Shown piece after piece: positions 1,764-60,544 of a stretch of 64,000 nucleotides of DNA. The notes under the pieces are model-generated. The model was given only the letters and a program-made list of their open reading frames with translations, was not told the origin of the DNA and did not search any database. The stretch covers positions 19,509-83,508 of the forward strand of contig CAYWPX010000009.1 of the NCBI GenBank assembly GCA_964460615.1, in the 5' to 3' direction. Origin of the DNA: an uncultured Planctomycetia bacterium. Its GTDB lineage: Bacteria > Omnitrophota > Gorgyraeia > CAYWPX01. A program made the position numbers and the translations under genes. Numbering within the stretch: the stretch's first letter is position 1; each line of letters begins with the position of its first letter.

Positions 1764-2012
1764 TATCAAAAAATTTGGTACCCCCAACAGGGGTCGTCTA
1801 CTACGTTTCGCTGATTGCTCAACTGCGTAGACTCACCTCATTTGCTTACGCTCCGTGACTCGGAGCTTATCCTCGCCTGCCGTAAGGCGGCTCGGCGCAA
1901 ATTCGCTTCTGAAATTCTTTTTTTGAATTTCATCCCGAGATTGTTTGATATAAAACAATCGAGGGGGTATTCCTATCAGAATTATCAAATTTGGTACCCC
2001 CAACAGGGGTCG
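1764..2012. repeat. ~30-bp direct repeats (1764-1796 and 1983-2012) = duplicated 3' terminus of tRNA-Lys(CTT), flanking a ~190-bp non-coding insert
   Basis: tatcaaa(aa)atttggtacccccaacaggggtcg occurs twice. The second copy is the genuine tRNA 3' end (T-loop to CCA); the first is followed by unrelated hairpin-rich sequence. Confidence 0.8.
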
Positions 2013-2354: not shown

Positions 2355-2536
2355 CATCTTTATTAAATTCTGGCGCGCCCGGCAGCTTGTCCGCCAATGA
2401 ATTGTGGCGGAGAGTCGACATTCTTTACTAATTTCCTTTGAAACATCTAATTCTGGCGCGCCCGGCAGCTTGTCCGCCAATGAATTGTGGCGGAGAGTCG
2501 ACATTCTTTACTAATTTCCTTTGAAACATCTAATTC
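2355..2536. repeat. Tandem 83-bp repeat (2.2 copies); each unit begins with the 3'-terminal 18 nt of tRNA-Arg plus a hairpin (ccgccaatgaattgtggcgg). The last unit runs into the real tRNA.
   Basis: ttctggcgcgcccggcagcttgtccgccaatgaattgtggcggagagtcgacattctttactaatttcctttgaaacatctaa is present at 2368-2450 and 2451-2533, then ttctggcgcgcccggcag continues as tRNA-Arg. Confidence 0.85.
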
Positions 2537-2613
2537 TGGCGCGCCCGGCAGGAGTCGAACCTGCGACCAAGTGGTTCGAAGCCACCTACTCTATCCAGCT
2601 GAGCTACGGGCGC
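2537..2613 (-). tRNA. tRNA-Arg (anticodon TCG), encoded CCA
   Basis: rc reads GCGCCCGTAGCTCAGCTGGATAGAGTAGGTGGCTTCGAACCACTTGGTCGCAGGTTCGACTCCTGCCGGGCGCGCCA. Anticodon loop CTTCGAA. Confidence 0.75.
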
Positions 2614-2663: not shown

Positions 2664-2795
2664 AGTAGGTGGCTTAGAGCCACCTACTCCCTGCCTGCCG
2701 GCCCTCTGAAATCTAAAAGATTTCGAGGCCTTTAGTCCCGGAAATGCGTAGCATTTCACGGGGCAGGCAGGTATCCAGCTGAGCTACGGGCGCAA
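2664..2795 (-). pseudogene. tRNA-Arg-derived fragment (5' acceptor/D-arm and anticodon stem-loop, no T-arm) interrupted by an 82-bp palindrome-ended element
   Basis: rc reads GCGCCCGTAGCTCAGCTGGATA + [CCTGCCTGCC...GGCAGGCAGG] + GAGTAGGTGGCTCTAAGCCACCTACT. The first 22 nt are identical to the tRNA-Arg 5' end and no 3' half follows. Confidence 0.6.
2690..2771. mobile_element. MITE-like element: 12-bp terminal inverted repeats CCTGCCTGCCGG / (G)GGGCAGGCAGG enclosing ~58 bp with two internal hairpins; inserted in the pseudo-tRNA
   Basis: Termini match the dispersed 20-bp palindrome found at 47217, 47237, 52923 and 60007. Interior hairpins tgaaatct/agatttca and gaaatgc/gcatttc. Confidence 0.5.
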
Positions 2796-3954: not shown

Positions 3955-3955
3955 G

Positions 3956-8964: not shown

Positions 8965-9219
8965 TTAGGCTAATTGTGGACTAAAAAACTTTTCTTTAAT
9001 TCTCCGTCGCCCTGTAGTTGATTTGTAAAATTTTTCCTTCTGTCTAGCTTCCTTAAGCGTTTCGAACTCTTCTGTATGTATTATGTTATACGGTCGATAT
9101 GGGCGTGACGCTTTGACTCTCCCGGCATTATGCAACGCTAATCGCTTATTCACATCATCGGCAACGCCGGTATACGTTCTCGTTTTCCTTTCATTGAGCA
9201 AGATATAGACATAATGCAT
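8965..9219 (-). CDS. GIY-YIG nuclease superfamily protein (UPF0213/YhbQ-like)
   Basis: 84 aa from MHYVYILLNERKTRTYTGVADDVNKRLALHNAG...EEFETLKEA, matching the YhbQ/YazA family. The longer ORF-track version (to 9345) overlaps tRNA-Ser and is rejected. Confidence 0.75.
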   Translation of the reverse strand: MHYVYILLNERKTRTYTGVADDVNKRLALHNAGRVKASRPYRPYNIIHTEEFETLKEARQKEKFYKSTTGRRRIKEKFFSPQLA

Positions 9220-24103: not shown

Positions 24104-24142
24104 TAAAAAATCATTCTTAATTTTAAGAATGATTTTTTATTT
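24104..24142. terminator. bidirectional rho-independent terminator abutting the tRNA-Lys(TTT) 3' end
   Basis: aaaaaatcattcttaa-tttt-aagaatgatttttt: perfect 11-bp stem flanked by A- and T-tracts. Confidence 0.7.
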
Positions 24143-24218
24143 TGGTGAGCCGCCCGTGACTCGAACACGGCACAACCACATTAAAAGTGTGGTGCTCTAC
24201 CTGATGAGCTAGCGGCCC
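24143..24218 (-). tRNA. tRNA-Lys (anticodon TTT), encoded CCA
   Basis: rc reads GGGCCGCTAGCTCATCAGGTAGAGCACCACACTTTTAATGTGGTTGTGCCGTGTTCGAGTCACGGGCGGCTCACCA. Anticodon loop CTTTTAA. Confidence 0.85.
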
Positions 24219-24566
24219 ACGTTAAACTTAAATCTAAATTTCAATACTAGGCAATCTGACTGATGTCGCTTTGTTGATGTCCCAAAAAACTTAAGTTTTT
24301 TGGGATGAATTAGCTCTTGATCCTTAAAAACTCGTTTTTCTGCCTGCTGCCTTAGGGCAGTCAGGCAGTAATCATGATCTAATTCTACGGCCCACGTTAA
24401 ACTTAAATCTAAATTTCAATACTAGGCAATCTGACTGATGTCGCTTTGTTGATGTCCCAAAAAACTTAAGTTTTTTGGGATGAATTAGCTCTTGATCCTT
24501 AAAAACTCGTTTTTCTGCCTGCTGCCTTAGGGCAGTCAGGCAGTAATCATGATCTAATTCTACGGC
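24216..24566. repeat. Tandem 175-bp repeat x2 (+ partial third) between frr and tRNA-Lys(TTT). Each unit carries a perfect 24-bp palindrome cccaaaaaacttaagttttttggg and an imperfect GC hairpin ctgcctgctgcc-ttag-ggcagtcaggcag.
   Basis: Units 24216-24390 and 24391-24565 are near-identical; the unit boundary includes the first nt of the tRNA 5' end (cggccc). Confidence 0.85.
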
Positions 24567-25868: not shown

Positions 25869-25935
25869 TGATTGTAGCTCATAGTTCAGAGCTCATGGCT
25901 CATAGAAAAATCTACAAGCCATTAGCTTAAGTTTT

Positions 25936-35484: not shown

Positions 35485-35570
35485 TGTACTCTCCTTGTAA
35501 TTTTTTATCTTTATTCTATGTACTGTGTACTAAGAACTGTGTACCTGCCTCGCCGGCAGGCGGGCTGCTT

Positions 35571-46150: not shown

Positions 46151-46648
46151 TCATCTCATTTCCCTTATCTTTTTTATCTTCTTCAAATTTTCAACGTCGA
46201 CTTTGTCAATGAGACGCCCTGTATTTTTCTTCATCAATATAAGATCATCTAACGATATAACCGGTAAAGCAATGTCACCGCTTTTAATAACCAAACTATT
46301 CTTTTTAGCCTTTTCGTAAGAAAGAGGGGATTTTATTATAATATCAACTTCTTTTAATTCATCTTCTTTATAAAAATTAAAAGCTTTTAAATGTTTATTT
46401 TTAATCCAATCTTCCCGTGTTTTTTTATCCGCCAAACCCATAGGTTCAACGGGTTGTTTAACAATATAACCGTTCTTCTTCAGGATAGTTACAACTTTTG
46501 CAAGATTATCATCACTCATTTCTACAAGTATATCCATATCAAGCGTGCTTCTTAAATATCCCAAAAGATTCAGAGCTATGCCCCCCACTAAAACATACTT
46601 TACTTTCTTTTTCTGAAATGCACGTAATATATTTTCGTAGATTATCAC
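46151..46648 (-). CDS. minimal nucleotidyltransferase-fold protein (MNT-like; G-x12-D-x-D)
   Basis: 165 aa. YVLVGGIALNLLGYLRSTLDMDILV matches the Pol-beta-superfamily NTase core of antitoxin-type MNT proteins. Confidence 0.5.
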   Translation of the reverse strand: MIIYENILRAFQKKKVKYVLVGGIALNLLGYLRSTLDMDILVEMSDDNLAKVVTILKKNGYIVKQPVEPMGLADKKTREDWIKNKHLKAFNFYKEDELKEVDIIIKSPLSYEKAKKNSLVIKSGDIALPVISLDDLILMKKNTGRLIDKVDVENLKKIKKIREMR

Positions 46649-46664
46649 AGCTCTTATTCCTCTA

Positions 46665-46976
46665 CTAATTCCTATTTATTTTATCTAATTCAACTCTAAT
46701 TCTAGATAAAACTAAACTTGTTACGGCGCGTATTTTCCTCAGCTCTTCTATTCTAAAAGATATAAGCGAGTTATCGTTCCAATCCTCCTTAGACAAAAGC
46801 AATCCTTGATGTGCAATTTTATTTCTATCTGGTTTGATGTTTTTTAATTCTCTTATTAAACGATCATTATTACTTAATTTCTCAAATTTAGTGATTAATT
46901 GTCCTAAAGAATCCTCTTCTATCCATTTTTGAGTACATTTAAAAGGAACTGCTCCAGAAAGCTTGTTTCTTATCAT
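46665..46976 (-). CDS. HEPN-like small protein (Rx4H motif)
   Basis: 103 aa. PDRNKIAHQG resembles the HEPN/HepT RNxxxH catalytic motif; immediately upstream of the MNT-like gene. Confidence 0.35.
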   Translation of the reverse strand: MIRNKLSGAVPFKCTQKWIEEDSLGQLITKFEKLSNNDRLIRELKNIKPDRNKIAHQGLLLSKEDWNDNSLISFRIEELRKIRAVTSLVLSRIRVELDKINRN

Positions 46977-47216
46977 CTTTATAGCAACTGTTATGTATGT
47001 TTTTAATGCAAATTCTATGAGTTAAAAATTATATAAAGTAGGAATAATTTCATCAATATATTCTTTATAATTGTTTTTTTCATTTTTCCTTATAACAATA
47101 TAACAATTAAAATTTATAAGAACTGTACCTATTTTTGCTTATTCTATTGTTCTATTGCTCAATTTTCAATTGCTCTACCAAAATTTGCCAAAAACAAATT
47201 CTGGTTGCCCGGTAAG

Positions 47217-47256
47217 CCTGCCTGCCGGCAGGCAGGCCTGCCTGCCGGCAGGCAGG
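47217..47256. repeat. two tandem copies of the perfect 20-bp palindrome CCTGCCTGCCGGCAGGCAGG, inserted inside a duplicated copy of the tRNA-Gln 3' end
   Basis: tggttgcccggtaag|PAL|PAL|gattcgg versus the genuine tRNA 3' end tggttgcccggtaaggattcg at 47392-47412. Confidence 0.9.
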
Positions 47257-47391
47257 GATTCGGCGCCCTTCGTACGGCTTCGCTTACGCTACGCCAGTTA
47301 CTACGGGTCGGCCACCCGCCTCATCTACATATTCTCCTTTTCGTCGAATATATGAGGCTCCCTTCGAATCCTTACTTGTAGTTAATAATTT

Positions 47392-47465
47392 TGGTTGCCC
47401 GGTAAGGATTCGAACCTTAACGCTCAGACCCAAATTCTGATGTGCTACCATTACACTACCGGGCA
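47392..47465 (-). tRNA. tRNA-Gln (anticodon TTG), encoded CCA
   Basis: rc reads TGCCCGGTAGTGTAATGGTAGCACATCAGAATTTGGGTCTGAGCGTTAAGGTTCGAATCCTTACCGGGCAACCA. Anticodon stem TCAGA/TCTGA, loop ATTTGGG. Confidence 0.75.
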
Positions 47466-47585
47466 ATAAAGTTTTTTGAATGAGCTTATCTTATTAAGTC
47501 ATGCGATCATGATGATCCATAAAAGATCTGGTTCACCGCACTACCGGGCAATGTCAAGGTTCCTTCACACCAATAATACTATTTC

Positions 47586-47632
47586 AAAAAAAGACATTTT
47601 AGGCAGTACCATGTATCTGATACTGCCTAAAA
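47586..47632 (-). terminator. rho-independent terminator downstream of spoVG
   Basis: 12-bp perfect stem ttttaggcagta/tactgcctaaaa, T-tract 4 nt after the hairpin on the minus strand. Confidence 0.55.
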
Positions 47633-47670
47633 TTTAATTGCTTTTATATTAAAGCTTATAACTTAAAATG

Positions 47671-48135
47671 TTAAAGCTCTATATCGCCTTCTGTATCCAT
47701 CCCATGGTCAACGCTGATAGGCTTATTGCCGATACTAGATTCGCTTTTAGGCTCCTTTTTCTCCTGTTCATATGCATCCAAAACCTTCTTCTGGATGTAT
47801 TCCCTGCATTCAAGAGTAATAGGATGAGCAATATCTTTATGTTCGGACTGTCTGGCCGATTCATCCTGAGCGGTAATATGAGTCTTTTGCTCAATCACCG
47901 GCAGACTTGCGCCGCACTGGTTGCAGAACTTGCTGCGAACAGTATTTTTATAATTACATTTTGGGCATGGCTCTTTAACTTTCCTTGATGGCATAGCTAC
48001 AAAAAGCCCTTTATTGCCTTCGATAACTTTAATATTCCTTACGACGAAAGCATTATCGATAGTTATCGTCGCATAAGCTTTCAATTTTTTATCTGCACCG
48101 CTTTTTAAAAAAACCCTAACTTCCGTAATTTCCAT
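47671..48135 (-). CDS. spoVG: SpoVG-family protein with inserted C4 zinc-ribbon
   Basis: 154 aa. MEITEVRVF...ATITIDNAFVVRNIKVIEGNKGLFVAMPSRK ... DIAHPIT matches the SpoVG core. ~45 aa with CPKC...CNQC inserted between AMPSRK and DIAHPI. Confidence 0.75.
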   Translation of the reverse strand: MEITEVRVFLKSGADKKLKAYATITIDNAFVVRNIKVIEGNKGLFVAMPSRKVKEPCPKCNYKNTVRSKFCNQCGASLPVIEQKTHITAQDESARQSEHKDIAHPITLECREYIQKKVLDAYEQEKKEPKSESSIGNKPISVDHGMDTEGDIEL

Positions 48136-48156
48136 TTGAAAAATACTCCTTTCATT

Positions 48157-49044
48157 CTAAGATGTAACTTTAGTCTTTGCTAATATAAATCTCCAATCGT
48201 CCTGCCTCTTATAGCAAGCCTCGTATCTCTTAATAAGGCTCCTCGCCACCTCCTTGTTTTCAACAATACCAAAAATTGTGGGGCCACTTCCTGTTATCCT
48301 GGCCCCTAAGGTATTTAAAGAAAGCTCTCTAAGAGCCTCCTTAATTTTTGCATCTTCTTTAATAACAACCGATTCCAGATCGTTAAAAAGAGATTTTGCC
48401 AATAGCTTTAGGTCAAATTGTTCTAAATTACGACGTGTTATTTTAACATTGCTACTCTGGTTTGTCAAGCCTAAATTAAGCTTATTATATATATCTTTTG
48501 TAGCCTTTTTTGATGGCCTAAAAAGAAGAATTAGCCAGAATTCCTTGGTACAATTTATCTCTTCTAGCACTTCTCCTATGCCTTTAGCCAATGCATAGGG
48601 TTTGTCATATACAAAAAAAGGAACATCTGCGCCCAATTTGACTGAAATGGAGATTAATTCATCTTTATTGATACCCATTTCAAACAACTTATTGATCCCA
48701 ATTAGCGTTGCAGCCGCATCTGAGCTTCCCCCTCCTAATCCGCTAGCTAAAGGAATGTTCTTTTTTACGAATATATCAACGCCTTTATCTCTGATCCCCT
48801 TTAAATCAAAAAGCATTTTTGCGGCTTTATAGCACAAATTATCTGATATCTCTAAATTATTAAGAGCTTGATCGTTTGAATTAACGGTTATTAATCTATC
48901 ATTTCTAATTTTTAAGGAAATTTCATCGGAAAGGTCAAGTTTGGCAAAAATTGTCTCAATTTCATGATATGAATCGGGCCTTTTGCCTATTACTTTCAGG
49001 CAAAGATTGATTTTGGCGGGAGCGAGTAAGGTAATGCTTTCCAT
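48157..49044 (-). CDS. ispE: 4-diphosphocytidyl-2-C-methyl-D-erythritol kinase
   Basis: 295 aa. PAKINL and PLASGLGGGSSDAAA GHMP-kinase motifs. Confidence 0.9.
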   Translation of the reverse strand: MESITLLAPAKINLCLKVIGKRPDSYHEIETIFAKLDLSDEISLKIRNDRLITVNSNDQALNNLEISDNLCYKAAKMLFDLKGIRDKGVDIFVKKNIPLASGLGGGSSDAAATLIGINKLFEMGINKDELISISVKLGADVPFFVYDKPYALAKGIGEVLEEINCTKEFWLILLFRPSKKATKDIYNKLNLGLTNQSSNVKITRRNLEQFDLKLLAKSLFNDLESVVIKEDAKIKEALRELSLNTLGARITGSGPTIFGIVENKEVARSLIKRYEACYKRQDDWRFILAKTKVTS

Positions 49045-49146
49045 AGTATGAATTAATTTCTTATAGCTTCAGGCTGCGAGCTTCAGGCCGCATACAAAAA
49101 TCATATCCTTAAGGATTTTAGGCTTGAAGCTAGTGGCTTGGAGCCT

Positions 49147-50103
49147 CTAAGTCTTTTTTTCCTTGCCCTTAGTGAGGGCAACCAGTTCTTTGGCTTTATT
49201 GACAATATTTTCTTCAGTGAGATTAAATACCTTGAAAAGTTCTTCAAGTTCTCCGGATTCCCCGCACCTATCTTTGATCCCGATAAATGTCATTGGCACC
49301 GGATAGTTCTGTGATACAACTTCGCTCACGGCACTTCCTAGCCCCCCGTAAACCGTATGCTCTTCACATGTCAAAATGCATCCGGTTTTCTTGGCAGATT
49401 CTAAAATCAATTTTTCATCGAGAGGACGTAGCGTATGAATATTAATGACCCTTGCTTCAATGCCGGACTTAAGAAGCTCTTCTCTGGCCTTAAGCGCATA
49501 GTAACACATATTCCCGCAACTCGTTATCGTAATATCCTTGCCATCAGCAAGTATCGTACCTTTGCCGATCTCAAAATCGTCTTCTTCTTTAGTGATAACA
49601 GGGACATTTGACCTTCCCAGCCTTATATAGACAGGGCCCGGAAATTCCGCCGCTTTAATAGTTGCTTTCTTTGCTTCGATAAAATCGCACGGAACGATCA
49701 TCGTCATATGCGGAAGCGCTCTCATAAGCGCTATCTCTTCTATCGCCTGATGCGTATATCCATCAGGGCCTGTAGCAATGCCGCCATGCGTCCCGATAAT
49801 CTTTACATTTAACTTCATATAAGAAATAGATACTCTTATCTGATCCCAAGCGCGGCCGCTGGCAAAAACGCCAAAAGTGGCAGCAAAGGGAATTTTCCCG
49901 CAAAGAGCCATTCCGGCTGCCGTAGAGAACATATCTTGTTCGGCGACGCCCATCCCGAAAAACCTGTCAGGAAATTCTTTCTGAAACCATGATGCTCTGG
50001 TCGAATCTGTCAAGTCGGCGCACAGCACAACTACGTCTTTATTTTTCTTTGCCGCTTCTATAACTCCTTTTCCAAATCCATCTCTAGTAGGGATCATTTC
50101 CAT
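49147..50103 (-). CDS. tkt: transketolase, C-terminal (pyrimidine-binding) subunit
   Basis: 318 aa; split transketolase. Confidence 0.9.
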   Translation of the reverse strand: MEMIPTRDGFGKGVIEAAKKNKDVVVLCADLTDSTRASWFQKEFPDRFFGMGVAEQDMFSTAAGMALCGKIPFAATFGVFASGRAWDQIRVSISYMKLNVKIIGTHGGIATGPDGYTHQAIEEIALMRALPHMTMIVPCDFIEAKKATIKAAEFPGPVYIRLGRSNVPVITKEEDDFEIGKGTILADGKDITITSCGNMCYYALKAREELLKSGIEARVINIHTLRPLDEKLILESAKKTGCILTCEEHTVYGGLGSAVSEVVSQNYPVPMTFIGIKDRCGESGELEELFKVFNLTEENIVNKAKELVALTKGKEKKT

Positions 50104-50215
50104 GTTATATCCTTTAAATTATGTCTCAAGTCACAGGTCTGCCTGCAAAGCAGGCGATGTCACAGGTTAAATAATCATATAATAACCTGAGACATGCGAC
50201 TTGCAACATGAAACA

Positions 50216-51052
50216 TTACAATTTTTTCTCAGCTTCTTCCAATTCCTTTAAAGCCTTTTCCAATTCATCTTTCTTTGGCGCAATACCGTGCCATTCGGCT
50301 TTGTTTTCAACAAATGATACGCCTTTACCTTTTACAGTATGAGCGATTATTACTGTGGGCTTTCCTTTGATCTCGTCAGCCTTATCCAAAGCAATCATAA
50401 GATCTTTGACGTTATGTCCATCGACTTCGATAGTATGCCATCCGAAAGCCTTCCATTTTTCAGTCATAGAAGTCATATCCTTCACATCGCAGCAAAACCC
50501 GTCTATCTGAAGCCTGTTAAAATCTATGATCCCGCATACATTATCAAGCTTGTAATGACTGGATGTCATAGCAGCTTCCCAGATCTGGCCTTCATTGGTT
50601 TCACCGTCGCCCATAAGGCAATAAACTTTATATTTCAATTTATCAAGCCTGGCTGCAAAAGCCATGCCATTAGCCAGCGATAGACCCTGACCAAGTGATC
50701 CGGTAGATGCTTCAATACCCGGCAGGCCGATATATGGGTGGCCCTGAAGCCTTGAGCCTATCTTTCGAAGCGTTGAAAGCTCCTCTTTTGGAAAAAACCT
50801 TAAGCTAGAAAGCACCGCATAAAGCGCCGGACAGGCATGACCTTTAGATAAAACAAATCTATCCCTGTCGGTCATTTTTGGATTTTTCGGGTCCACGTTC
50901 ATCTTGTAATAATAAAGTGCTATCAATATCTCCACTATAGAAAGCGACCCGCCGGTATGCCCGCTTTTTGCTAAAAATAACATATTAAGGATATCTTTTC
51001 TTATTGAAAAAGCTAAACGCTCAAGATCTTTTATATCAACATTTTTTTTCAT
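50216..51052 (-). CDS. tkt: transketolase, N-terminal (TPP-binding) subunit
   Basis: 278 aa. GHTGGSLS and GDGETNEG TPP-binding motifs. Confidence 0.9.
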   Translation of the reverse strand: MKKNVDIKDLERLAFSIRKDILNMLFLAKSGHTGGSLSIVEILIALYYYKMNVDPKNPKMTDRDRFVLSKGHACPALYAVLSSLRFFPKEELSTLRKIGSRLQGHPYIGLPGIEASTGSLGQGLSLANGMAFAARLDKLKYKVYCLMGDGETNEGQIWEAAMTSSHYKLDNVCGIIDFNRLQIDGFCCDVKDMTSMTEKWKAFGWHTIEVDGHNVKDLMIALDKADEIKGKPTVIIAHTVKGKGVSFVENKAEWHGIAPKKDELEKALKELEEAEKKL

Positions 51053-51068
51053 AAAATATTTTCTTTTT

Positions 51069-52739
51069 TTAAGGCTTTTGGCCTAAAGATTGAAGTTTTT
51101 CCTTAACTTTCAAATTGGTTGGGTCCAGTTTCAAAGACTTTTCCCAGCACTCTTTTGCTTTTATCGGATCACCCTTTTTTAAATATATATCCCCCAGATG
51201 CTCCATTATAACCGGATCATCCATGATTTTTGACGCCTTATCTATTTCAACAAATGCGTCGTCGATCTTATCCATTTTATAATACACCCACCCCAATGAA
51301 TCCAGGTATGCAGCGTTTTGAGGGTCTAGTTGTAATGCCTTCATAATAAATTTAAGAGCTTCGTCCAGATTTTTCCCTTCTTCAGCCCATGCATATCCCA
51401 GATAATTATATGCATCTGCAAAACTCGGGTCAAGTTCAATTACCTTTTTAAAAGTTTGCTCAGATTCTGTTTTCCTATTTAATTTGTCCAACGAAACAGC
51501 TATAAAAAAATATATCCTTGGATCCTCAGGATATTTAAGTTTGCCTTTATTGTATGTATCAAGAGCTGTTTTATCATCTTTAAGGGACGAATAACAATAA
51601 CCCAGCGATAGATATAACGAAGGGTCTTCTAGGCCGTTATTAAGAGCCTGGTTCAATTCCTTTATAGCACCTAGATAATTCTTTTCTTTAATGTATACTT
51701 GAGCAACTCCCACATACCCATTTACAGCCTTTGGATCTAATTTTAGGATAAGTTCGAATGATTTTAAGGCTTCATCTAATCTATCGGTATCATAGTAGAC
51801 CTGGCCCAGCTTTTCATGTATCTTATAATTCAAAGGGTCCATCTCAATAGCCTTTTCGTAAAACTTAATAGCACCCTCCGGATTTTTTTTAGTCTCCTCA
51901 AGAATCCCAAGCGCCAGGTATGCCTCAACATAAGAAGGATCCAGCTTTATAGCTTCATTAAAATATTTGGAAGCTAATTCTATGTTATTAATTTTAGTGT
52001 AAAGGATCCCGAGATTAAACCTTATATCAGCAGAATTGGCATCGAGATCAAGAAGCTTTTCAAAGATCAAAACAGCTTCGCTGTTCTTGTTTTGCACAAC
52101 ATATAAATCAGCAAGAGATCCGAGTGCATCCTTATCGTCAGGATGTTTCTTCAGGACCTCTTTGTATATCTTTACCGCTTCATCGTACTTTTTTTCAGTC
52201 AGATAAGTAAGGGCAATAAGAAAGTCTATTTTTGTATCTTCCGGAGAGATCTTCTTAGCCAGGCCAAACTCTTCGATAGCCTTATCAAACTCCCCTAAAA
52301 CAAGATAGGCTGTCCCTACTTTTGTATGAGGCCTGGGACTCTCGGGATCAAAAAATGAAGCCTTGTAAAATTCACCGACTGCGCTTTTATAATCTCCGGC
52401 ATTTTCATAAAAATTACCCATCAGATAATGACTAATCGCTTTTGAGAGAGTCCTGTCCTTTTGAGTAAAAATATCGGAATCTGACAGATATAATTCTTTG
52501 ATCTGAAGCAGCTCTTCGCTTTTTCTTTGGGCAGGCTTTATAATAAAATCATCTATGGCTTTAGTTACACTCTGACCCGAGGCAGATATTTTGTCAAATA
52601 TCCCCCTAAAAGTACCCGCCAAAGGCATATTTGCCTTTGGCGGAGCTTTTGAAACTATTGCCTTTGCAAGAACACCTGCTAAAATCAATAGCAGGAATAT
52701 CACTGCAATGACTATTGTTTTCTTATTCTTTAACTTCAC
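51069..52739 (-). CDS. TPR-repeat protein with N-terminal TM anchor
   Basis: 556 aa; >10 tetratricopeptide repeats. Confidence 0.8.
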   Translation of the reverse strand: MKLKNKKTIVIAVIFLLLILAGVLAKAIVSKAPPKANMPLAGTFRGIFDKISASGQSVTKAIDDFIIKPAQRKSEELLQIKELYLSDSDIFTQKDRTLSKAISHYLMGNFYENAGDYKSAVGEFYKASFFDPESPRPHTKVGTAYLVLGEFDKAIEEFGLAKKISPEDTKIDFLIALTYLTEKKYDEAVKIYKEVLKKHPDDKDALGSLADLYVVQNKNSEAVLIFEKLLDLDANSADIRFNLGILYTKINNIELASKYFNEAIKLDPSYVEAYLALGILEETKKNPEGAIKFYEKAIEMDPLNYKIHEKLGQVYYDTDRLDEALKSFELILKLDPKAVNGYVGVAQVYIKEKNYLGAIKELNQALNNGLEDPSLYLSLGYCYSSLKDDKTALDTYNKGKLKYPEDPRIYFFIAVSLDKLNRKTESEQTFKKVIELDPSFADAYNYLGYAWAEEGKNLDEALKFIMKALQLDPQNAAYLDSLGWVYYKMDKIDDAFVEIDKASKIMDDPVIMEHLGDIYLKKGDPIKAKECWEKSLKLDPTNLKVKEKLQSLGQKP

Positions 52740-52922
52740 TACTAACCACCTAAAAGCTGTAGATTTTCTTAAAAAATCACTATCTTTCTCTCTTTTTATG
52801 TCTATCTCTTCTCAATCTTTTTTTTCTTTTATGCTTAGCCATTTTTTTGCGTTTTCTTTTTCTTCCGCAAGGCATGCTGTACCCCTTTCTATTTAGCTCT
52901 TGGCTCATAGTTACCTATGAGC

Positions 52923-52942
52923 CCTGCCTGCCGGCAGGCAGG
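52923..52942. repeat. 20-bp perfect palindrome CCTGCCTGCCGGCAGGCAGG flanked by TATGAGC direct repeats; adjacent hairpin ggctcatag-ttac-ctatgagcc
   Basis: Identical to the copies at 47217, 47237 and 60007. Confidence 0.9.
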
Positions 52943-52954
52943 TATGAGCTCGTA

Positions 52955-53827
52955 TTAATCTATAACCTTATTTAACGGATATTCTATTATCCCCTGGGCC
53001 CCGGCTTTCTTGAGACGGGGGATAAGTATCTTAACCTCTTTTTCATCGATAATAGTATCTACATCACACCACTTATCATCCGAAAGATTTGAAATGGTCG
53101 GTTTTTTCATAGCCGGCAATAAGTCAAGTACATCTTTGAGTTTAGATTTTTCGATATTCATTTTAAGCCCGACTTTTGATTCGGATAGAAGCGCCCCTTC
53201 AAGCAAAAGGGCAATGCTGTCAATCTTGAACTTTTTATCCGGATCTTTATACGCTTCATTATTGGCCACCAAACATGTAGATGACTCACAAACAGTTTCA
53301 ACTATCCTGAGTTTGTTTGCCCTTAGCGACCTCCCGGTCTCAGTGAGCTCTACAATAGCATCCACTAACCCCGCGCTGACCTTAACCTCGGTAGCGCCCC
53401 AGCTAAATTCAACCTCAGCCGTAACCCCGTTTTTTTTCAAGAAATCCTTTGTTACCTTTACCAATTCCGTCGCGATCATTTTCCCTTCAAGATCCTTTAC
53501 GAATTTGATGTCGGAGCTTTCGGGAACAGCTATAACCCACTTCACAGAACCAAGGCCCTGTTTAGCATAGTGAAATGTCTTCACCACCGTTACCTTGGAT
53601 CCATTCTCTTTTATCCAGTCTGCCCCGGTTAAACCGCAGTCAAGAGCCCCATGTTCAACATACCTTGACATCTCCTGAGCCCTCAAAAGAATAGGGTCGA
53701 TCTGGTCATCATCAATAGAAGGAAAATAAGACCTATCCCCGACCGATACCTTGAAACCAGCCTTTTTGAACATATTGAACGTAGCTTCCTGAAGGCTGCC
53801 CTTTGGAAGCCCTAATTTTAATTTCAT
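52955..53827 (-). CDS. hisG: ATP phosphoribosyltransferase (long form with C-terminal regulatory domain)
   Basis: 290 aa. [10 protein letters not shown]-terminus and HisG-long architecture. Confidence 0.8.
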
Positions 53828-54025
53828 ACTTTATCCTTTTCACATTAAATTATTAAGTAATGCACTAAATTTTAACTCATTTACCCCTACATTGTCAAGG
53901 CAATTATTAAGGCAAAGTAGCTACAAATTATAAAAATCGATAACAACTTTTGTTTATACATAAAAGAAAATAAGAGCATTATAAGATGAAAAATCTTACT
54001 GCCCATTTTACGGTTTGACAATAGG

Positions 54026-54054
54026 CCTATTTAGTGATATAAAATATAAGGAGG
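54026..54054 (+). promoter_or_regulatory. sigma70-type promoter for rubrerythrin (TTGACA-17-TATAAA)
   Basis: TTGACA at 54026-54031, TATAAA at 54049-54054, ~50 nt upstream of the ATG. Nearby inverted repeat TAAGAT-N5-ATCTTA (53992-54008). Confidence 0.5.
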
Positions 54055-54105
54055 TACTCCTAAACATAAGGTCATCTATTAGCAAGCAAACTATGGGAGA
54101 AATTT

Positions 54106-54750
54106 ATGACTATAAAGAATAACTTTTTGGTAATTTGCGCTGTTTTATTCATGTCTTTATTTCTGATCACCGGAATTTCAGCGGCTCTTAACACAGATGA
54201 GACCACAGAACGATCAGTAACCACTTTGGACAACCTATTGACAGCTTATAACGGCGAAAGCAACGCCCAGCAAAAATATCTTGATTTTGCCAAAAAGGCC
54301 GATGAAGAAGGTTATGGAAAGATTGCCAGCCTCTTTAGAGCGGCAGCACAAGCCGAGCAGGTCCACTTAGAGCGCCACGCCAAAATAATAAAAAAACTGG
54401 GCGGCACGCCAGTTGCCGTAATAGCCCCAACTGAGGTCAGATCAACAAAAGAAAATCTTGAAAACGCGTTTGATGGCGAGACTTACGAAAACACAAAAAT
54501 GTATCCGGAATTTCTTTCCCAAGCAAAAATCGAAAAAGTAACTGATGCTATAGATGCTTTTGAAGATGCCGCGGCTTCTGAGAAAGTCCATGCTCAGCTT
54601 TATGCAGGCGCCCTAAAAGAAATGGGCAGCTGGAAAACAAAAACCGATTTTTATGTATGCCCGGTATGCGGAAATGTTGTTGAAAAGCTTCCAGGCCAAT
54701 TCTGCCCGATATGCATGGCAGAGACATATAAGTTTGTTACTGTAAATTGA
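54106..54750 (+). CDS. rbr: rubrerythrin (ferritin-like diiron domain + C-terminal rubredoxin-like CxxC...CxxC) with N-terminal signal-peptide-like segment
   Basis: 214 aa. E...EXXH diiron ligand pattern; CPVCGNV...CPICMAE. Confidence 0.8.
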   Translation: MTIKNNFLVICAVLFMSLFLITGISAALNTDETTERSVTTLDNLLTAYNGESNAQQKYLDFAKKADEEGYGKIASLFRAAAQAEQVHLERHAKIIKKLGGTPVAVIAPTEVRSTKENLENAFDGETYENTKMYPEFLSQAKIEKVTDAIDAFEDAAASEKVHAQLYAGALKEMGSWKTKTDFYVCPVCGNVVEKLPGQFCPICMAETYKFVTVN

Positions 54751-54773
54751 TCTAATAAAAAATATTTTACATA

Positions 54774-54810
54774 AGAAATGGGCGTTAAATTCACGCCCAT
54801 TTCTTATTTT
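54774..54810 (+). terminator. rho-independent terminator after rubrerythrin
   Basis: gaaatgggcgt-taaattc-acgcccatttc followed by ttatttt. Confidence 0.7.
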
Positions 54811-54895
54811 ATAAGCTTTCATAAACAGTTTGAAAAATAATCCTTAATATACTATAATAAACCGAACCTAAACTTATTTTATAAGGAGTTATGGC

Positions 54896-56806
54896 ATGTT
54901 AAAATTTTTAAGAAACAAAAAGGTAATGAGAAGAGTTTTTTGGGGATTGGCCATCATCATAATACCTGCATTCACTCTCTGGGGCGTCGGTTCTATGGGT
55001 GACAAATCTGAAAGAAAAAGCAAAAATCTTACATACGCCGGTAAAATCTACAACAAAAAAATATCAATTAGAGATTACCAGGATGCTTACCGCGAAACCG
55101 AGATACAGGCAAAGCTGGCTTATGGCGATAAATTTAATGAGGTCCGAAAATTCTTAAATATAGGCGATCAGGCCTGGGATAGGATTCTTCTTCTGGATGA
55201 ATGCCAAAAAAATAAAATTTCTGTTTCGGATAAAGAGTTGTCTCAAAAGATCGCTTCTTTTAAATTCCTTGAAAGAAAAGGTAAATTTGACATTGAAGTT
55301 TATGAAAGGTTTTTGAAATATTTCTTACAGGTTAACGCCCCATTTTTTGAGAATACAATCCGAAACAGCATAAAGATAACAAAACTTCTTGATATGAAAA
55401 AACCGACCGGCGATATCAAAGAAGAAGAACTTAGAAAATTATATAAAGAAGAAAATGAAAAAGCAAAGATCTCCTATATCTTGTACGACACCAATTCTTT
55501 TAAGAACGATATAAAGATTACGGATGATGAGATAAGTAAATACTATGAATTTAACAAAGACGACTACAAAGTCCCGCCACAACTAAGCATAGATTATCTT
55601 GAGTTTAAATTCTCCGATTTTAATAAGGACATAAAGATCACGGATGATGATATTAAATACTATTATGATTCGCATTTAAATGAATTCAAAAAGCCCGAAG
55701 AGGTCCATGCCAGGCATATACTCGTAAAGACCGAAGCAGAAGCCAAAGAGATACTTGATACTATAAAAGCAAAGAAAAGAACTTTTGAAGACCTGGCCAA
55801 AGAGAAATCCGAGGATCCGGGATCTAAAAGCCAGGGCGGGGATCTGGGTTTTTTTGCTAAAGGCCAAATGGTCAAGGAATTTGAAGATGAATCATTCAGG
55901 CTGAAGCCCGGCGAGATTAGCGAACCCATAAAAACCAACTTTGGCTACCATATAATAAAGGTTGAAGAAAAAAAAGATGCATACACCGAAGACCTTAACA
56001 CCGTTAAAGAAAGGATCCGCGGCGAGATTTTAAACGAAAGATCAAGGGAATCGGCAATCAGTAAAGCCAATGAGGTCTCAAATAAGATACAGGAAAACCC
56101 TGATAATTTTGAAGAGGTCATAAAAGAGAACAAGCTGGAGCTTAAAACCGCCGGTCCCTTTTCCAAAGAAGGAGTAATACCCAATTTAGGATACAATCCC
56201 CTTATACAGGAAGAGGCCTTTAAAATGAATGTAGGTACTATAAGCAAGGTGTTAGCTCAAGACGATCCGAAAGCAGGCCAGGCAGCATATATAATAAGGC
56301 TAAAGGAAAAATTCAAACCCAGGATAAAAAACCTTAGCGAAGTAAAAGAAGAAATTAAAAATACGCTTGTTAATAAAAAAGCCAGCGAACTAGCTCACAA
56401 AAAAGCCAGCGATGACTATGAAGCGATCAAGATAATGCTTGAAGATAATAAGCAATTGGATAGTGTCTCTGATGTGCTGGATGTAGAAGTAAAAAAATCC
56501 AATGAGTTTACAAAAAACTCATTTGTTAACGGCCTTGGCATGGCCAGCGAAATATCAGGGGTGGTTTTTTCGCTTAAGGTAGGAGAGCTGTCCAAACCAT
56601 TTGATATAAAAAGAGGCACACTGATTATAACGCTTGATGAGCTTAGCGGCATAGATGAGAAAAAGTTTAAAGAGGAATCCGAAGAATTCAAAAAACGCCA
56701 GCTTCAGACCAGGGAAAATACATTCGTTGAAGATTACCTTAAAGAACTGCGCGGAAAATCTAAGATAGAAATGAATATTACTTCTTTGGAAGAATTATAT
56801 GAATAA
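54896..56806 (+). CDS. ppiD: periplasmic chaperone/peptidyl-prolyl isomerase PpiD-like (N-terminal TM anchor, parvulin domain)
   Basis: 636 aa. SurA-N-like region, parvulin signature HARHILVK...GGDLGFF...FGYHIIKV. Confidence 0.8.
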   Translation: MLKFLRNKKVMRRVFWGLAIIIIPAFTLWGVGSMGDKSERKSKNLTYAGKIYNKKISIRDYQDAYRETEIQAKLAYGDKFNEVRKFLNIGDQAWDRILLLDECQKNKISVSDKELSQKIASFKFLERKGKFDIEVYERFLKYFLQVNAPFFENTIRNSIKITKLLDMKKPTGDIKEEELRKLYKEENEKAKISYILYDTNSFKNDIKITDDEISKYYEFNKDDYKVPPQLSIDYLEFKFSDFNKDIKITDDDIKYYYDSHLNEFKKPEEVHARHILVKTEAEAKEILDTIKAKKRTFEDLAKEKSEDPGSKSQGGDLGFFAKGQMVKEFEDESFRLKPGEISEPIKTNFGYHIIKVEEKKDAYTEDLNTVKERIRGEILNERSRESAISKANEVSNKIQENPDNFEEVIKENKLELKTAGPFSKEGVIPNLGYNPLIQEEAFKMNVGTISKVLAQDDPKAGQAAYIIRLKEKFKPRIKNLSEVKEEIKNTLVNKKASELAHKKASDDYEAIKIMLEDNKQLDSVSDVLDVEVKKSNEFTKNSFVNGLGMASEISGVVFSLKVGELSKPFDIKRGTLIITLDELSGIDEKKFKEESEEFKKRQLQTRENTFVEDYLKELRGKSKIEMNITSLEELYE

Positions 56807-56833
56807 ATTTTAAAATAAGGACCTGAGCTATAT

Positions 56834-56867
56834 AAAAAAAGACGCCTTTATAGAGGCGTCTTTTTTT
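56834..56867. terminator. bidirectional rho-independent terminator between convergent ppiD-like and DUF1189-like genes
   Basis: aaaaaaa-gacgccttta-tagaggcgtc-ttttttt. Confidence 0.8.
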
Positions 56868-56890
56868 ATTAAATATTCTAGGCTGTGTGA

Positions 56891-57664
56891 CTAGGAGGCG
56901 GACATTTCAGATTTGGTATTGGTTATTCCCATAATAATATAGATCATATAAACACCGCAATAAATAATCCAGAAAAATGGAATATACAATTTGAATATTG
57001 TATTTATTACTCCTAATATTATGCTCGGAGTTAAGGCATAAATACCTATATTAAAAAGATTTTTGTACTTAAGATTTGCTCCGACCGAAACATTCATTAT
57101 TAAAGAAAAAAGGCTGACAAGAAAGACTTGAAAAAATTTAGCAACCATTGCTCCGATGTATACCCCTATAAACATAATCAGACATGCTAAAACAAAAAGC
57201 ACATCCTTTAACCTAGTAAAAATAGTTTTGTCTACAACTAAGTGTTCCGTTCTTGAAAGATCATAAGTATTTACCTGCCCGGATTTATCTTTATAATAGA
57301 GCTTATCTTTTGTAAATAATAATCCCCAATCCCCTTCGACTGAACTGGTTTTCCCCGTGGTATCAATACCAAAGGTAAAGCCGTATCTTTGGGTTTGAAA
57401 AGGCTGTGGCTTGTCAAAAACAACCTTCCCTTTTTGGATTTCAATTTTTCCGATAGTCTGATCATACCACTTAATAGAATTATCTATAAATTGGCTAAAA
57501 TCAACACTGTACCTGACTATTAGTAAAAGCGCTACACATAAAATAAGCACAGAAAGATAACCGATGCTCTTTGAAACGGGCTGATTAGATATCTCTTTAT
57601 AAAAACCGAAATTTACGATTGATTTATAAATACTATTAAAAAAACCGATCTTGGCCTGCGACAT
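56891..57664 (-). CDS. polytopic membrane protein (DUF1189-like)
   Basis: 257 aa. Two TM clusters separated by a soluble ~110-aa domain. Confidence 0.4.
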   Translation of the reverse strand: MSQAKIGFFNSIYKSIVNFGFYKEISNQPVSKSIGYLSVLILCVALLLIVRYSVDFSQFIDNSIKWYDQTIGKIEIQKGKVVFDKPQPFQTQRYGFTFGIDTTGKTSSVEGDWGLLFTKDKLYYKDKSGQVNTYDLSRTEHLVVDKTIFTRLKDVLFVLACLIMFIGVYIGAMVAKFFQVFLVSLFSLIMNVSVGANLKYKNLFNIGIYALTPSIILGVINTIFKLYIPFFWIIYCGVYMIYIIMGITNTKSEMSAS

Positions 57665-57679
57665 GTTTCCCTCCTGAAA

Positions 57680-58129
57680 TTAAGTAAGAAGATCCTTTAA
57701 TTCTCTCATGAATTGATTTATATCTTTAAACTGCCTGTATACGGATGCAAACCTGACATAAGCAATCTCATCCAGGTCTGCCAAAGACTTCATAATAAGC
57801 TCCCCTATCGCCTCACTGGGAACTTCCCTGTCATAATTCTTCTGCAAGGCCCTCTCCAGCGAATCAACGAGTTTTTCGATCTTTTCTACGCTGACAGGCC
57901 TCTTTTCGCAGGCCTTCATAAGCCCTGAAACTATTTTATTTCTATCATAAGGTTCACGCCTGCCGTCTTTTTTTATGACCATCAGAGAAACTTTTTCGAC
58001 ATATTCATAAGTGGTAAAACGTTTTTTGCACTTGAGGCATTCCCGTCTGCGACGGATACTGGTATCAGAGGAATTTGACCTTGAATCTACAACCTTATCC
58101 CTACCGGATCCGCAAAAAGGACATTTCAT
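57680..58129 (-). CDS. nrdR: transcriptional repressor NrdR
   Basis: 149 aa. N-terminal CPFC...CLKC zinc ribbon + ATP-cone. Confidence 0.95.
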
Positions 58130-58149
58130 AGGCTATCGTCTCTTTTCTT

Positions 58150-58617
58150 TTATTTCAATACTCTTACTTTTATTCCTGCTTCGTCAAGAAATTCTTCAGC
58201 CATGCTGTCAGGGTAGCAATCCTGGATAATGATCTCTTTTATACCGGCATTTATCAACATCTTTGCGCATATTATACATGGCTGGTTAGTACAATAGATA
58301 ACGGAATCCTTTAAGCTAACACCGTATAAAGACGCCTGAAGCAAAGCATTCTGTTCAGCATGCAGCCCTCTGCACAGCTCATGGCGCTCGCCTGAAGGGA
58401 TTTTTAGCTTAGTCCTGATACATCCAACCTCAGAACAGTGCTTTATATTGGTAGGAGCCCCATTATACCCGGTAGATAAGAGTCTTCTGTCTTTTACTAT
58501 AACTGCTCCGACCTTGCGTCTTAAACATGTAGAACGGCTAGATACAAGTTTTGCTATCTCAAGAAAATATTGGTCCCAACTGGGCCTGGTATCCGAATGT
58601 TTTTTAGGCATTTTCAA
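58150..58617 (-). CDS. dCMP deaminase (ComEB-like cytidine/deoxycytidylate deaminase)
   Basis: 155 aa. HAEQNAL and PCIICAKML zinc-binding motifs. Confidence 0.9.
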
Positions 58618-59929
58618 TTTCCTTTATCAGTTCCTTATAAAGCGGAAATTTATCAGTAAGCTTGTTTATTTCATCTTTTACAAATTCTATTGTGCTTCCA
58701 TCGCTGGGCCTCGTGATAACGGCATCAATTAAGCCCGCTATTTTTTCCATCTCAGCTTCTTTCATACCGCGGCTGGTAACAGCAGGAACACCTATTCTTA
58801 TACCGCTAGTAACAAACGCGCCCCTTTTATCAAAAGGTATAAGGTTCTTATTAACGGTGATACTCGCTATATCAAGCGCCGTTGCAGCGTCACGGCCGGT
58901 AATCCCTTTTTCTGTAAGGTCGACCAGCATAAGATGGTTATCCGTCCCGCCCGAGACTATCCTGTATCCGTGGGATTGCAGGGCAGATGAAAGAGTCTTA
59001 GCATTTTTGATGATCTGCTTCTGGTAGTTTTTGAATTCATTTGTCATAGCCTCTTTAAAACATACCGCTTTTGCGGCGATCACGTGCATCAAAGGCCCGC
59101 CCTGAATACCAGGAAAAATCTCAGAATCTATTTTTTTTGCATATTCCTTTTTAGAAAGTATCATTCCGGCTCTCGGGCCTCTCAGGGTCTTATGAGTAGT
59201 AGTTGTAACAAAATGCGCATACTCGACCGGGTTTGGATGAAGGCCCGCGGCTACCAACCCTGCAAAATGCGCCATATCGACAAATAGATACGCGCCGGAC
59301 TTATCACAGATCTTTCTCAATTTCTCAAAGTCTATTACCCTTGGATAAGCGCTTGCGCCTGCAAGGATCATTTTTGGATGATGCTCTTTGGCTAGGTCGG
59401 CGATCTCATCATAATCCAGGCATTCGTCCTTCCTTGAAACACCGTAAGAAATAACATTAAAATATCTTCCTGAAAAATTATGGCTGTGCCCGTGCGTCAG
59501 ATGCCCCCCGCACGCAAGATCCATAGCCAAAACCGTATCTCCGATACTAAGCATGGCAAAATATACGGCCATATTGGCTGTCGAACCGGAATGAGGCTGG
59601 ACATTGGCATGTTCTGCGCCAAAAAGTTTTTTGGCGCGTTCTATAGCAAGCGTCTCTATCTCATCTACATATTCGCATCCATTATACCAACGCGCTTTGG
59701 GATACCCTTCGGCATATTTATTAGTTAATGATGAACCTTGGGCTTCAAGAATAGCTTCGGAAACAAAATTTTCACTGGCAATAAGCTCAATCTTTGCATT
59801 TTGTCTTTTTGTCTCTTCTAAAATCAAACTAAAAACTTCCGGATCTGTTGCTTTAAGTCGACGCATCCTAGTTCGCTCCTTTAAAATTATCCCAGATTTT
59901 GAAATTAAATCTTTTGTCTGTAGTTCCAT
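58604..59929 (-). CDS. glyA: serine hydroxymethyltransferase
   Basis: 441 aa. PLP site [12 protein letters not shown]. Confidence 0.95.
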
Positions 59930-60006
59930 TTATTTGATTGATATATTAAATTAGAGCTCTAAATTATTTTACTTTTGGTAGTAATGTTTTTTCTTTAGCT
60001 ATGAGC

Positions 60007-60026
60007 CCTGCCTGCCGGCAGGCAGG
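60007..60026. repeat. 20-bp perfect palindrome CCTGCCTGCCGGCAGGCAGG flanked by TATGAGC direct repeats (glyA-rpiB intergenic)
   Basis: gctatgagc|PAL|tatgagctat. Confidence 0.9.
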
Positions 60027-60037
60027 TATGAGCTATT

Positions 60038-60487
60038 TTATTTAAACTCTTTTCTTTCAATATCTTCTATCTGGCTAACTCTTTTTTTATGCCTATCCTC
60101 GGATATATTTGCTTCTAGCCATACATCAACACATTTTTGTGCTTCCTCTAAAGTTATAAAATTCGCTCCAAAAACAATTACATTGCAGTCATTATGTTCT
60201 CGCATTGATCTGGCAACCTCTTCAAATTGGCAAACTGAGGCCCTTATACCCTTAACCTTATTGGCAACTATCGAAAACCCGACTCCGGTTTTGCAGATAA
60301 GAATACCTCTTTCGCATTTACCGTTAGAAACGGCCTTCCCGACCTCGTATCCTATAGGCGGGTAATCACAGCTAAGAGTATTTTTTGTGCCGAAATCCAT
60401 CACATCAATTTTTTTTGATTTAAGATATTCTACCAGTTTTTCCTTAAGCTCAAATCCGCCATGATCGGCTCCGATTGCAATGCGCAT
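60038..60487 (-). CDS. rpiB: ribose-5-phosphate isomerase B
   Basis: Start taken at MRIAIGADHGGF (AAGGAG RBS 7 nt upstream) rather than the longer ORF-track start. RpiB/LacAB family. Confidence 0.9.
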   Translation of the reverse strand: MRIAIGADHGGFELKEKLVEYLKSKKIDVMDFGTKNTLSCDYPPIGYEVGKAVSNGKCERGILICKTGVGFSIVANKVKGIRASVCQFEEVARSMREHNDCNVIVFGANFITLEEAQKCVDVWLEANISEDRHKKRVSQIEDIERKEFK

Positions 60488-60544
60488 CAAAAACTCCTTA
60501 ATATTTTTATGAGGACAACTTTTTTTAAATTTTCTTAGGGTCAA

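Follow-up and report, generated by a model that had tools for sequence, protein, structure and literature searches.

What is a perfect 20-bp palindrome doing at separate places of one bacterial chromosome, and what put it there? The question was raised by a 64,000-nt stretch of DNA from an uncultured bacterium of the Omnitrophota, to which its protein neighbours also assign it (contig CAYWPX010000009.1), here called the window, which is a piece of a 39% G+C chromosome with the majority of its genes on the minus strand. The palindrome, CCTGCCTGCCGGCAGGCAGG (PAL), is made of two 10-bp inverted halves, and an earlier note on this DNA had taken it for a dispersed, REP- or MITE-like family. Our results confirm that PAL is a dispersed and inserted element, and they point to a different kind of partner gene. 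We propose, from the comparison of sequences, that PAL is probably the cis-acting hallmark of a selfish mini-cassette of very wide distribution, which would spread by nuclease-triggered, homology-guided copying.

Four exact copies of PAL are present in the window, an abutting pair and two solo copies, all at the positions where the earlier note had placed them (Table 1). No extra match was found in the window at up to three mismatches, and 100 dinucleotide shuffles gave none, with 0 expected. The 82-bp element, described before as a longer version with the same termini, has 10-bp ends identical to those of PAL; it encloses two internal hairpins and folds into a three-way junction (-28.4 kcal/mol, z = -8.3). 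The degenerate copy exists too, two bases to the left of the 35546-35566 first reported, and a variant similar to it is found in the GIY-YIG locus L200. It is true that all copies are intergenic, but two of the loci lie inside truncated tRNA gene copies; none of the window copies has a neighbouring nuclease ORF. The direct repeat TATGAGC does bracket both solo copies (52916-52922 and 52943-52949 beside hisG, 60000-60006 and 60027-60033 beside rpiB), and the flanks that these two sites have in common in fact extend to 8+8 bp (CTATGAGC / TATGAGCT). As for the related hairpins said to recur nearby, the one at 52902-52922, which precedes the hisG copy, is real, while 25873-25905 is a direct-repeat stutter of GCTCATRG and 62185-62193 falls in the last codons of an ORF. 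GCTCATA occurs 17 times in the window versus 8.3 expected.

Table 1. Palindrome copies, tRNA genes with their partial copies, and the nuclease gene of the window
Feature	Position	Strand	Remarks
Abutting PAL pair (47217-47236, 47237-47256)	47217..47256		T-loop of the tRNA-Gln 3' orphan, where tRNA positions 59 and 60 meet
tRNA-Gln 3' orphan	47202..47262	-	Aligned to the intact gene (score 42), spanning the PAL point; 47257-47262 = tRNA positions 54-59, 47202-47216 = positions 60-74, PAL pair between
Intact tRNA-Gln(TTG)	47392..47465	-	135 bp upstream of its orphan
82-bp element	2690..2771		Precise insertion between tRNA positions 22 and 23 (between GGATA and GAGT) of the tRNA-Arg 5' orphan
tRNA-Arg(TCG) 5' orphan	2664..2793	-	2772-2793 = positions 1-22; 2664-2689 = position 23 onward
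Intact tRNA-Arg(TCG)	2537..2613	-	50 bp downstream of its 5' orphan, no ORF between
tRNA-Lys(CTT) 3' orphan with PAL-like hairpin	1771..1890	-	Orphan 1771-1796; hairpin 1870-1890, within the 195-bp gap to intact tRNA-Lys(CTT), 1992-2067
83-bp tandem units 3' of tRNA-Arg	2390..2494	-	Each a copy of the tRNA 3' end plus a TCCGCC...GGCGGA hairpin; orphan 2454-2468, hairpins 2390-2411 and 2473-2494
GIY-YIG gene, 84 aa, the sole one in the window	8965..9219	-	PF01541, E = 7e-15
Solo PAL	52923..52942		12 bp 3' of the hisG stop
Solo PAL	60007..60026		11 bp 3' of the rpiB stop, upstream of glyA
Degenerate PAL variant, 21 bp, CCTGCCTCGCCGGCAGGCGGG	35544..35564		6 bp 3' of the bamA stop

Since PAL is a stable hairpin and its window copies lie 6-12 bp after stop codons, it could be thought a host regulatory hairpin (a terminator or mRNA stabiliser) that has arisen repeatedly, or else an assembly or sequencing artefact. 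We give this explanation next to no credence. PAL has no T tail and its flanks are without T runs, and an intrinsic terminator scan made no call on it, none of the 18 terminator-like sites in 46500-60500 being a PAL. The rpiB-glyA spacer of the nearest relative (68% RpiB identity) is devoid of PAL, which speaks both against a conserved terminator and for an inserted element, and, with control palindromes giving 0 matches, it is not credible that PAL arose repeatedly with exactly these 20 bases. Against an artefact, independent assemblies contain PAL, as do finished genomes of isolates. Two independent Logan contigs from the same sample terminate exactly at PAL plus its flank, as is expected for a repeat exceeding the assembler k-mer. 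One of them, ending at the rpiB copy (L238), has as bases 1-30 the inside of the 3' end of a tRNA, which suggests that another repeated tRNA piece lies a few kb beyond the high end of the window.

PAL is not confined to the window. In a scan for the exact 20-mer in one genome per species, with figures taken from the matches listed, identical PAL was found in at least 120 species-representative genomes of about ten phyla, nearly all stretches coming from different genomes. Among the matches listed there are about 36 Patescibacteria, 38 Bacteroidota (seven of them isolates), 10 Omnitrophota, 8 Planctomycetota/PVC and 12 genomes labelled Gammaproteobacteria or Pseudomonadota, besides others, and in IMG/VR PAL is present in 35 viral contig stretches. 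The control palindromes, the permuted GGCAGGCAGGCCTGCCTGCC and a composition-matched one, gave 0 matches each. PAL flanks are unrelated from genome to genome: common k-mers reach only a few bases past PAL, and there is no conserved motif, with a bias at position -1 only (A 41%, T 9%). Together, the cross-phylum identity, the zeros of the controls and the unrelated flanks rule out chance, convergence and a species-specific REP family. TATGAGC, once considered a possible part of the mobile unit, is not part of it, as 160 other sites have unrelated flanks.

The same data bear on the proposal of the earlier note that PAL belongs to a REP or REPIN-type family mobilised by a RAYT, that is, by an IS200/IS605-like Y1 transposase. 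Such a family would account for an intergenic palindrome just 3' of genes and for insertion without target duplication, as in IS200/IS605, but we consider it very improbable. REPs are lineage-specific, whereas PAL recurs unchanged in phages and in about ten phyla; its palindrome is perfect and is accompanied by no conserved asymmetric flank; and most genomes hold only one or two copies, counted on the stretches returned. Neither a Y1 transposase cluster nor any other transposase family recurs near PAL, no transposase-like cluster being found within 1.5 kb of it at 155 loci. The Pfam census of the window covered the best 25 of 145 families. The gene that does recur with PAL codes for a GIY-YIG nuclease.

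Several observations from the survey stand by themselves. A viral contig (L155) ends, at 3926-4142, in at least 10 tandem 21-bp units ccatgcctaccGGCAGGCAGG, each of them a mutated PAL. In a phage tRNA-Met (L146, 2239-2330) PAL sits in the variable loop and the gene is still called by ARAGORN (92 nt); in a related contig (L123, 8560-8650) part of the T-arm that follows PAL has been deleted. Another GC-rich palindrome, TCCGCCAGCTGGCGGA, was present in 7 of 120 genome loci from different phyla (L011, L016 and five more); its TCCGCC-N3-GGCGGA relatives stand in place of PAL in two GIY-YIG cassettes (L158, L162), and a long-loop form of this type of hairpin adjoins the tRNA-Arg 3' orphans of the window. 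At five loci, L050 and L108 among them, small ORFs for four-helix bundles lie within about 1.3 kb of PAL; by sequence they are of the kind annotated as 23S rRNA intervening-sequence protein.

Where the window copies are not solo, they lead to tRNA genes, and to what we call orphans, redundant partial copies of a tRNA. The abutting pair and the 82-bp element each interrupt an orphan lying close to its intact gene, and related hairpins and further orphans are found around tRNA-Lys(CTT), tRNA-Arg (3' side) and tRNA-Lys(TTT). The tRNA-Arg 5' orphan has a mutated anticodon loop and its 3' half is missing; the loop is CUA-like, and an amber-suppressor tRNA was considered and discarded, a copy without its 3' half being a pseudogene. 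Searches of the gaps between the window tRNAs and their orphans gave no ORF remnants (E of 1 or higher), and Rfam at gathering thresholds returned only tRNAs for the window.

Upstream of tRNA-Lys(TTT) there are two 176-bp tandem units (24213-24565), each opening with the first tRNA bases and having one PAL-like hairpin (at about 24340-24370 and 24516-24546, respectively), and a copy of the tRNA 3' end lies ~260 bp downstream (23868-23886). AT-rich palindromes of sequence unrelated to PAL surround the same gene (24036-24087, 24097-24146 and 23698-23752); they are perfect or near-perfect, with 23-24-nt arms. At 47671-48135 the window codes for a SpoVG homologue with a zinc-ribbon segment inside the SpoVG domain (Pfam PF04026 and PF13240).

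The only GIY-YIG gene of the window is found 81 bp downstream of tRNA-Ser(GGA) (9301-9390), behind GC-rich hairpins, and does not adjoin any PAL. Its product scores 83 bits against an HMM of the 80 PAL-type proteins described below and, judged by this score, is a divergent member of the PAL-linked family. Between tRNA-Ser(GGA) and this ORF (9220-9300) the tRNA 3' end, TCCGCCA, is present in three copies placed about ~60 bp of hairpin-rich sequence, and after tRNA-Ser(TGA), at 9500-9690, a related repeat, GCGCCAGAGCAAAAATTTGGCGAGATG, occurs twice.

The link between palindrome, nuclease gene and tRNA was approached from both sides. From the PAL side, 18 of 171 sites are within 300 bp of a called tRNA, several sit inside tRNA-like sequence, in the D-loop, anticodon loop or variable loop, and four loci (L037, L106, L118 and L153) have one and the same order: a tRNA 5' fragment with PAL, a small ORF for a GIY-YIG domain protein, and an intact tRNA with the same 5' part. 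From the gene side, 80 metagenome loci were fetched by protein homology alone (peptide pattern REKYLKSG); these are the closest relatives of one PAL-linked protein, a subset of the UPF0213 family. Somewhere in the locus, 60 of these 80 carry PAL or a copy with at most four substitutions. In the 110 bp upstream of the ORF an exact PAL is present at 30 loci, a copy with up to two substitutions at 42 and with up to four at 51, and an exact PAL lies just downstream of the ORF at 3 of the 80. The density of PAL is 3.37 per kb beside the ORF versus 0.035 per kb in the remainder of the same loci. An intact tRNA is directly adjacent to the ORF in 69 of the 80 loci (58 downstream, 18 upstream), and more than 20 isoacceptors are represented. 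PAL, nuclease gene and tRNA orphan are found together.

The architecture is precise. PAL lies across the ORF from the intact tRNA, and always in the redundant copy, be this on the 5' or on the 3' side. The flanks could be aligned to the tRNA at 42 loci; at 32 of these the left one breaks off after position d and d+1 is where the right one takes over, with neither duplication nor loss. The values of d are 9/10, 14-16, 20-24 and 39, and the PAL of 3' orphans is in the T-loop. The orphan continues for 7-35 nt past PAL, a spacer of 1-40 nt leads to the ATG, and the ORF extends up to position +1 of the intact tRNA or into it. A coding role of PAL, read as 'PACRQAG' in the frame of the nuclease, was considered and rejected, the PAL-to-ATG distances falling in all three frames. 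The insert is about 240 bp long and has no recombinase, the ORF being naked and the tRNA duplicate that goes with it measuring 30-75 bp. Units of orphan, PAL and ORF may be in tandem (L177, L221, L236, L172), and a finished isolate genome, that of Croceiramulus getboli (CP123444.1, 339170-342433), carries the unit twice in identical form ahead of tRNA-Arg(TCG), its PAL bordered by GCTGAATA and GAGCAC; the tRNA and the insertion point are those of the tRNA-Arg orphan of the window. Related cassettes are homologous only from the orphan to the tRNA end and their flanks are unrelated (L171/L218, L187/L195, L197/L228). Two minor nuclease clades have other hairpins, TCCGCC-N3-GGCGGA in one and CA(C/T)CGCG...CGCG(G/A)TG, with a compensatory change, in the other. 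The same cassette layout was seen within an hsdS-like gene (L060, 3861-4145), and PAL in a 5S rRNA gene fragment beside the intact copy (L093, 927-1050), so the targets are not tRNA genes alone.

The partner protein is a stand-alone GIY-YIG nuclease of 75-90 aa, of the UPF0213/Slx1-like kind, and PF01541 was the sole Pfam match in 8 of 8 tested ORFs. The 80 proteins, 68-109 aa long with a median of about 80, comprise only the catalytic domain, with no separate DNA-binding domain; Y, G, R, H and E are invariant, and the conserved Tyr, Arg and Glu of the GIY-YIG catalytic domain are present. Of the solved structures, those of the UPF0213 proteins EF2693 (1YWL) and BH0048 (1ZG2) come closest, with E about 1e-10, and SLX1 structure-specific nucleases are next. 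Databases name these proteins 'GIY-YIG nuclease family protein' or 'putative endonuclease', and no NCBIfam model matches the nuclease. Nuclease clades track tRNA identity, and all five pairs at 80% identity or more have the same tRNA. In a cultured-phage collection relatives were found at 47% identity at most, and in the sole region inspected, that of Rhizobium phage RHph_TM30, the relative is not beside a tRNA.

Seen from the palindrome, the nuclease gene is rarely near: a gene of the family lies within 8-15 kb at only 10 of 155 loci, 6-7 of these adjoining PAL, so that about 95% of PAL copies are solo. Solo copies must therefore spread in trans or be relics. Besides those of the window, orphans that have no ORF and still hold PAL occur at L001, L030 and L083, and at L078 and L109 a solo PAL is in one copy of a tandem duplication that is not of a tRNA. 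The direct repeats that abut PAL have a sharp 7-bp mode, at 13 of 160 sites (8%) versus 0.3 expected, the TATGAGC of the window included.

The presence and absence of a solo copy could be compared in the orthologous spacer between lysM and a crp-like gene of four closely related Flagellimonas genomes. Two genomes have PAL there; a third, about 96% identical to both, and the outgroup do not, and the alignment shows a clean gap of 20 bp that is exactly PAL. This is the kind of occupied and empty pair that the earlier note had called for. The empty sites already have the 8-9-bp flanking repeat in tandem, and hence the 20 bp itself is the unit of gain or loss and no target is duplicated. A 7-bp target-site duplication as the product of insertion is accordingly rejected on this one testable pair in spite of the enrichment, the repeat being older than the insertion. 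In the two occupied sites PAL has kept 20 of 20 bases while about 7 of 30 neighbouring bases differ. The GCTCATRG array of the window at 25873-25905 is an instance of the degenerate 7-8-bp tandem 'stutter' arrays seen beside or near PAL, also at L101, L082, L045, L058 and L050, whose unit differs from genome to genome. As a general feature of PAL flanks such stutter was discarded: strong 7-8-bp periodicity is present in 1.5-7% of flanks versus 0.4-3% in controls, an enrichment that is real but minor.

The abundance of solo copies could mean that PAL moves independently, as a miniature transposon made up essentially of two 10-bp inverted ends set against each other and mobilised by some other enzyme, and that it is found beside cassettes because orphan tRNA pieces are neutral, hairpin-rich landing sites. 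Nested and tandem copies, longer elements of 44-175 bp that share the PAL ends, and the 7-bp repeats would all fit. We nevertheless judge this unlikely, as 64-75% occupancy beside the ORF and a 100-fold local enrichment are far above chance for genomes with one or two copies, no transposase accompanies PAL, and the sole occupied and empty pair has no duplication.

Likewise improbable is that PAL takes no part in movement and acts as a structural lock in the orphan, splitting the direct repeat against deletion of the cassette or blocking the folding of a truncated tRNA transcript, with solo copies as leftovers of lost cassettes. The constant seat of PAL in the redundant copy on either side of the ORF, the substitution of other hairpins for it, and the orphans with PAL and no ORF are all in line with such a role. 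Any hairpin would do for it, yet all 20 bases stay the same from phylum to phylum; a duplicated flank nearby is the exception among solo copies (15 of 169); and the clean 20-bp gain or loss in Flagellimonas took place in a spacer that is not tRNA.

We favour the mini-cassette. Its sole gene is that of the GIY-YIG nuclease, and it is seated in a tRNA gene, with the intact tRNA abutting the ORF and with PAL inserted base-exactly in the orphan, where stem and loop of the D-, anticodon- or T-arm meet. Its most likely working would be as follows. Like its Slx1 relatives, the nuclease would break hairpin-prone DNA, and repair would use a copy that has the cassette as template, the highly conserved tRNA sequence providing homology that is portable. 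Repair would copy PAL, the ORF and part of the tRNA, PAL being the outer end of the copied segment; and by occupying the break point of the orphan, PAL would keep the orphan from being re-cut or recombined away. The location of PAL at the loop junction of the orphan is compatible with cutting of the cassette-free allele, and is no proof of it. The intact tRNA copy retains the presumed cut site, which makes a simple 'immunity' logic incomplete, and a blocking role alone fails to explain 20 invariant bases beside ORFs that are only 45-55% identical. It also weighs against the model that an 80-aa protein has no obvious reading head, that the GIY-YIG gene of the window is divergent and away from any PAL, and that most PAL copies are far from a nuclease gene. 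PAL would in addition be read sequence-specifically, from which its invariance would follow, and PAL alone could be placed in trans as an exact 20-bp insertion with no target duplication.

More tentatively, and with less expectation of being right than for the cassette as such, the 80-residue Slx1-like nuclease and PAL might by themselves make up a previously unrecognised minimal mobile system that crosses phyla and phages. The nuclease would then read PAL by its sequence, as a dimer on the palindrome or on its hairpin or cruciform. It would put PAL, or a copy of it, into the stem-loop junctions of hairpin-prone DNA, its own gene travelling along or staying behind, with no duplication of the target and with tRNA sequence as cross-species homology.

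What would follow if this is true? A large share of the 'GIY-YIG nuclease family protein' entries of Patescibacteria, Bacteroidota, Omnitrophota and other phyla would be selfish remodellers of tRNA loci, not repair enzymes. There would be an explanation for the truncated tRNAs that disturb annotation in these genomes, and for the breaks of metagenome assemblies at PAL sites. Twenty bases kept letter-perfect across phyla would imply a very small sequence-specific protein-DNA pair, easily tested and a potential tool. Our search of the open-access literature found no description of the 20-mer or of the arrangement of GIY-YIG gene, tRNA and palindrome, and such a partnership, in which a minimal GIY-YIG nuclease gene and an unvarying palindrome invade tRNA genes, is apparently new to it.

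Which known systems does this one resemble? With REP and REPIN elements PAL shares being a short extragenic palindrome, often just 3' of genes, the lack of target duplication and the existence of non-autonomous copies. REP/REPIN elements are imperfect and lineage-specific, number tens to hundreds per genome and depend on a Y1 HUH transposase, whereas PAL is a perfect palindrome that does not differ between phyla, its copies usually number one or two, and its partner is a GIY-YIG gene; it neither forms a lineage-specific high-copy family nor has the asymmetric head (such as GTAG) of an imperfect palindrome. With MITEs it has terminal inverted repeats in common. The fixed-length target-site duplication of MITEs is absent, 32 of 42 tRNA insertions being exact and the 7-bp class making up 8% of sites, and no ORF-bearing autonomous element bounded by PAL halves was found at 156 loci.

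The GC clusters and hairpin elements of fungal and sponge mitochondria, as far as the available parts of two reports describe them, are GC-rich palindromes in AT-rich spacers that show presence/absence polymorphism and nested or tandem copies, and whose mover is not known (PMC4478555, PMC2800124). On that partial description, they have in common with PAL that they are scattered, GC-rich, polymorphic, nested and tandem, and differ in being organellar and lineage-restricted with no linked nuclease gene, while PAL is found in bacteria and phages of many phyla and has a partner gene.

Integrative elements that target tRNA genes by means of tyrosine integrases leave, as PAL cassettes do, a partial tRNA copy beside the intact gene. 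They encode an integrase, their cargo runs to kilobases, and it is the 3' part of the tRNA that they duplicate; in contrast, the PAL cassette has about 240 bp and no recombinase, duplicates either the 5' or the 3' part, and has a palindrome in the orphan.

The free-standing GIY-YIG homing genes of the T4 Seg type, such as SegB in a tRNA gene cluster, resemble PAL cassettes in being selfish, intron-free, located beside tRNA genes, patchy and locally amplifying. To our knowledge, neither a partial duplicate of the target gene nor an invariant palindrome is known for Seg genes. The cassette has the catalytic domain of GIY-YIG homing genes, adjoins its target gene, is patchy in distribution and shows homology limited to the unit; what it lacks is a separate domain for binding DNA, through which a long recognition site is read. 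Such a domain is present in Seg and I-TevI-type enzymes, which belong to a UvrC-like branch (PMC1564403), and the PAL-linked protein differs from them in being a bare Slx1-like domain of 75-90 aa. Its family by sequence is that of the stand-alone UPF0213/Slx1-like proteins, EF2693 and BH0048 among them. The 2006 survey of the GIY-YIG superfamily, which makes no mention of tRNA linkage or of a palindrome, counted the stand-alone Slx1-like proteins of bacteria among repair factors that are inherited vertically (PMC1564403); unlike these, the PAL-linked subfamily behaves as a mobile cassette of tRNA genes.
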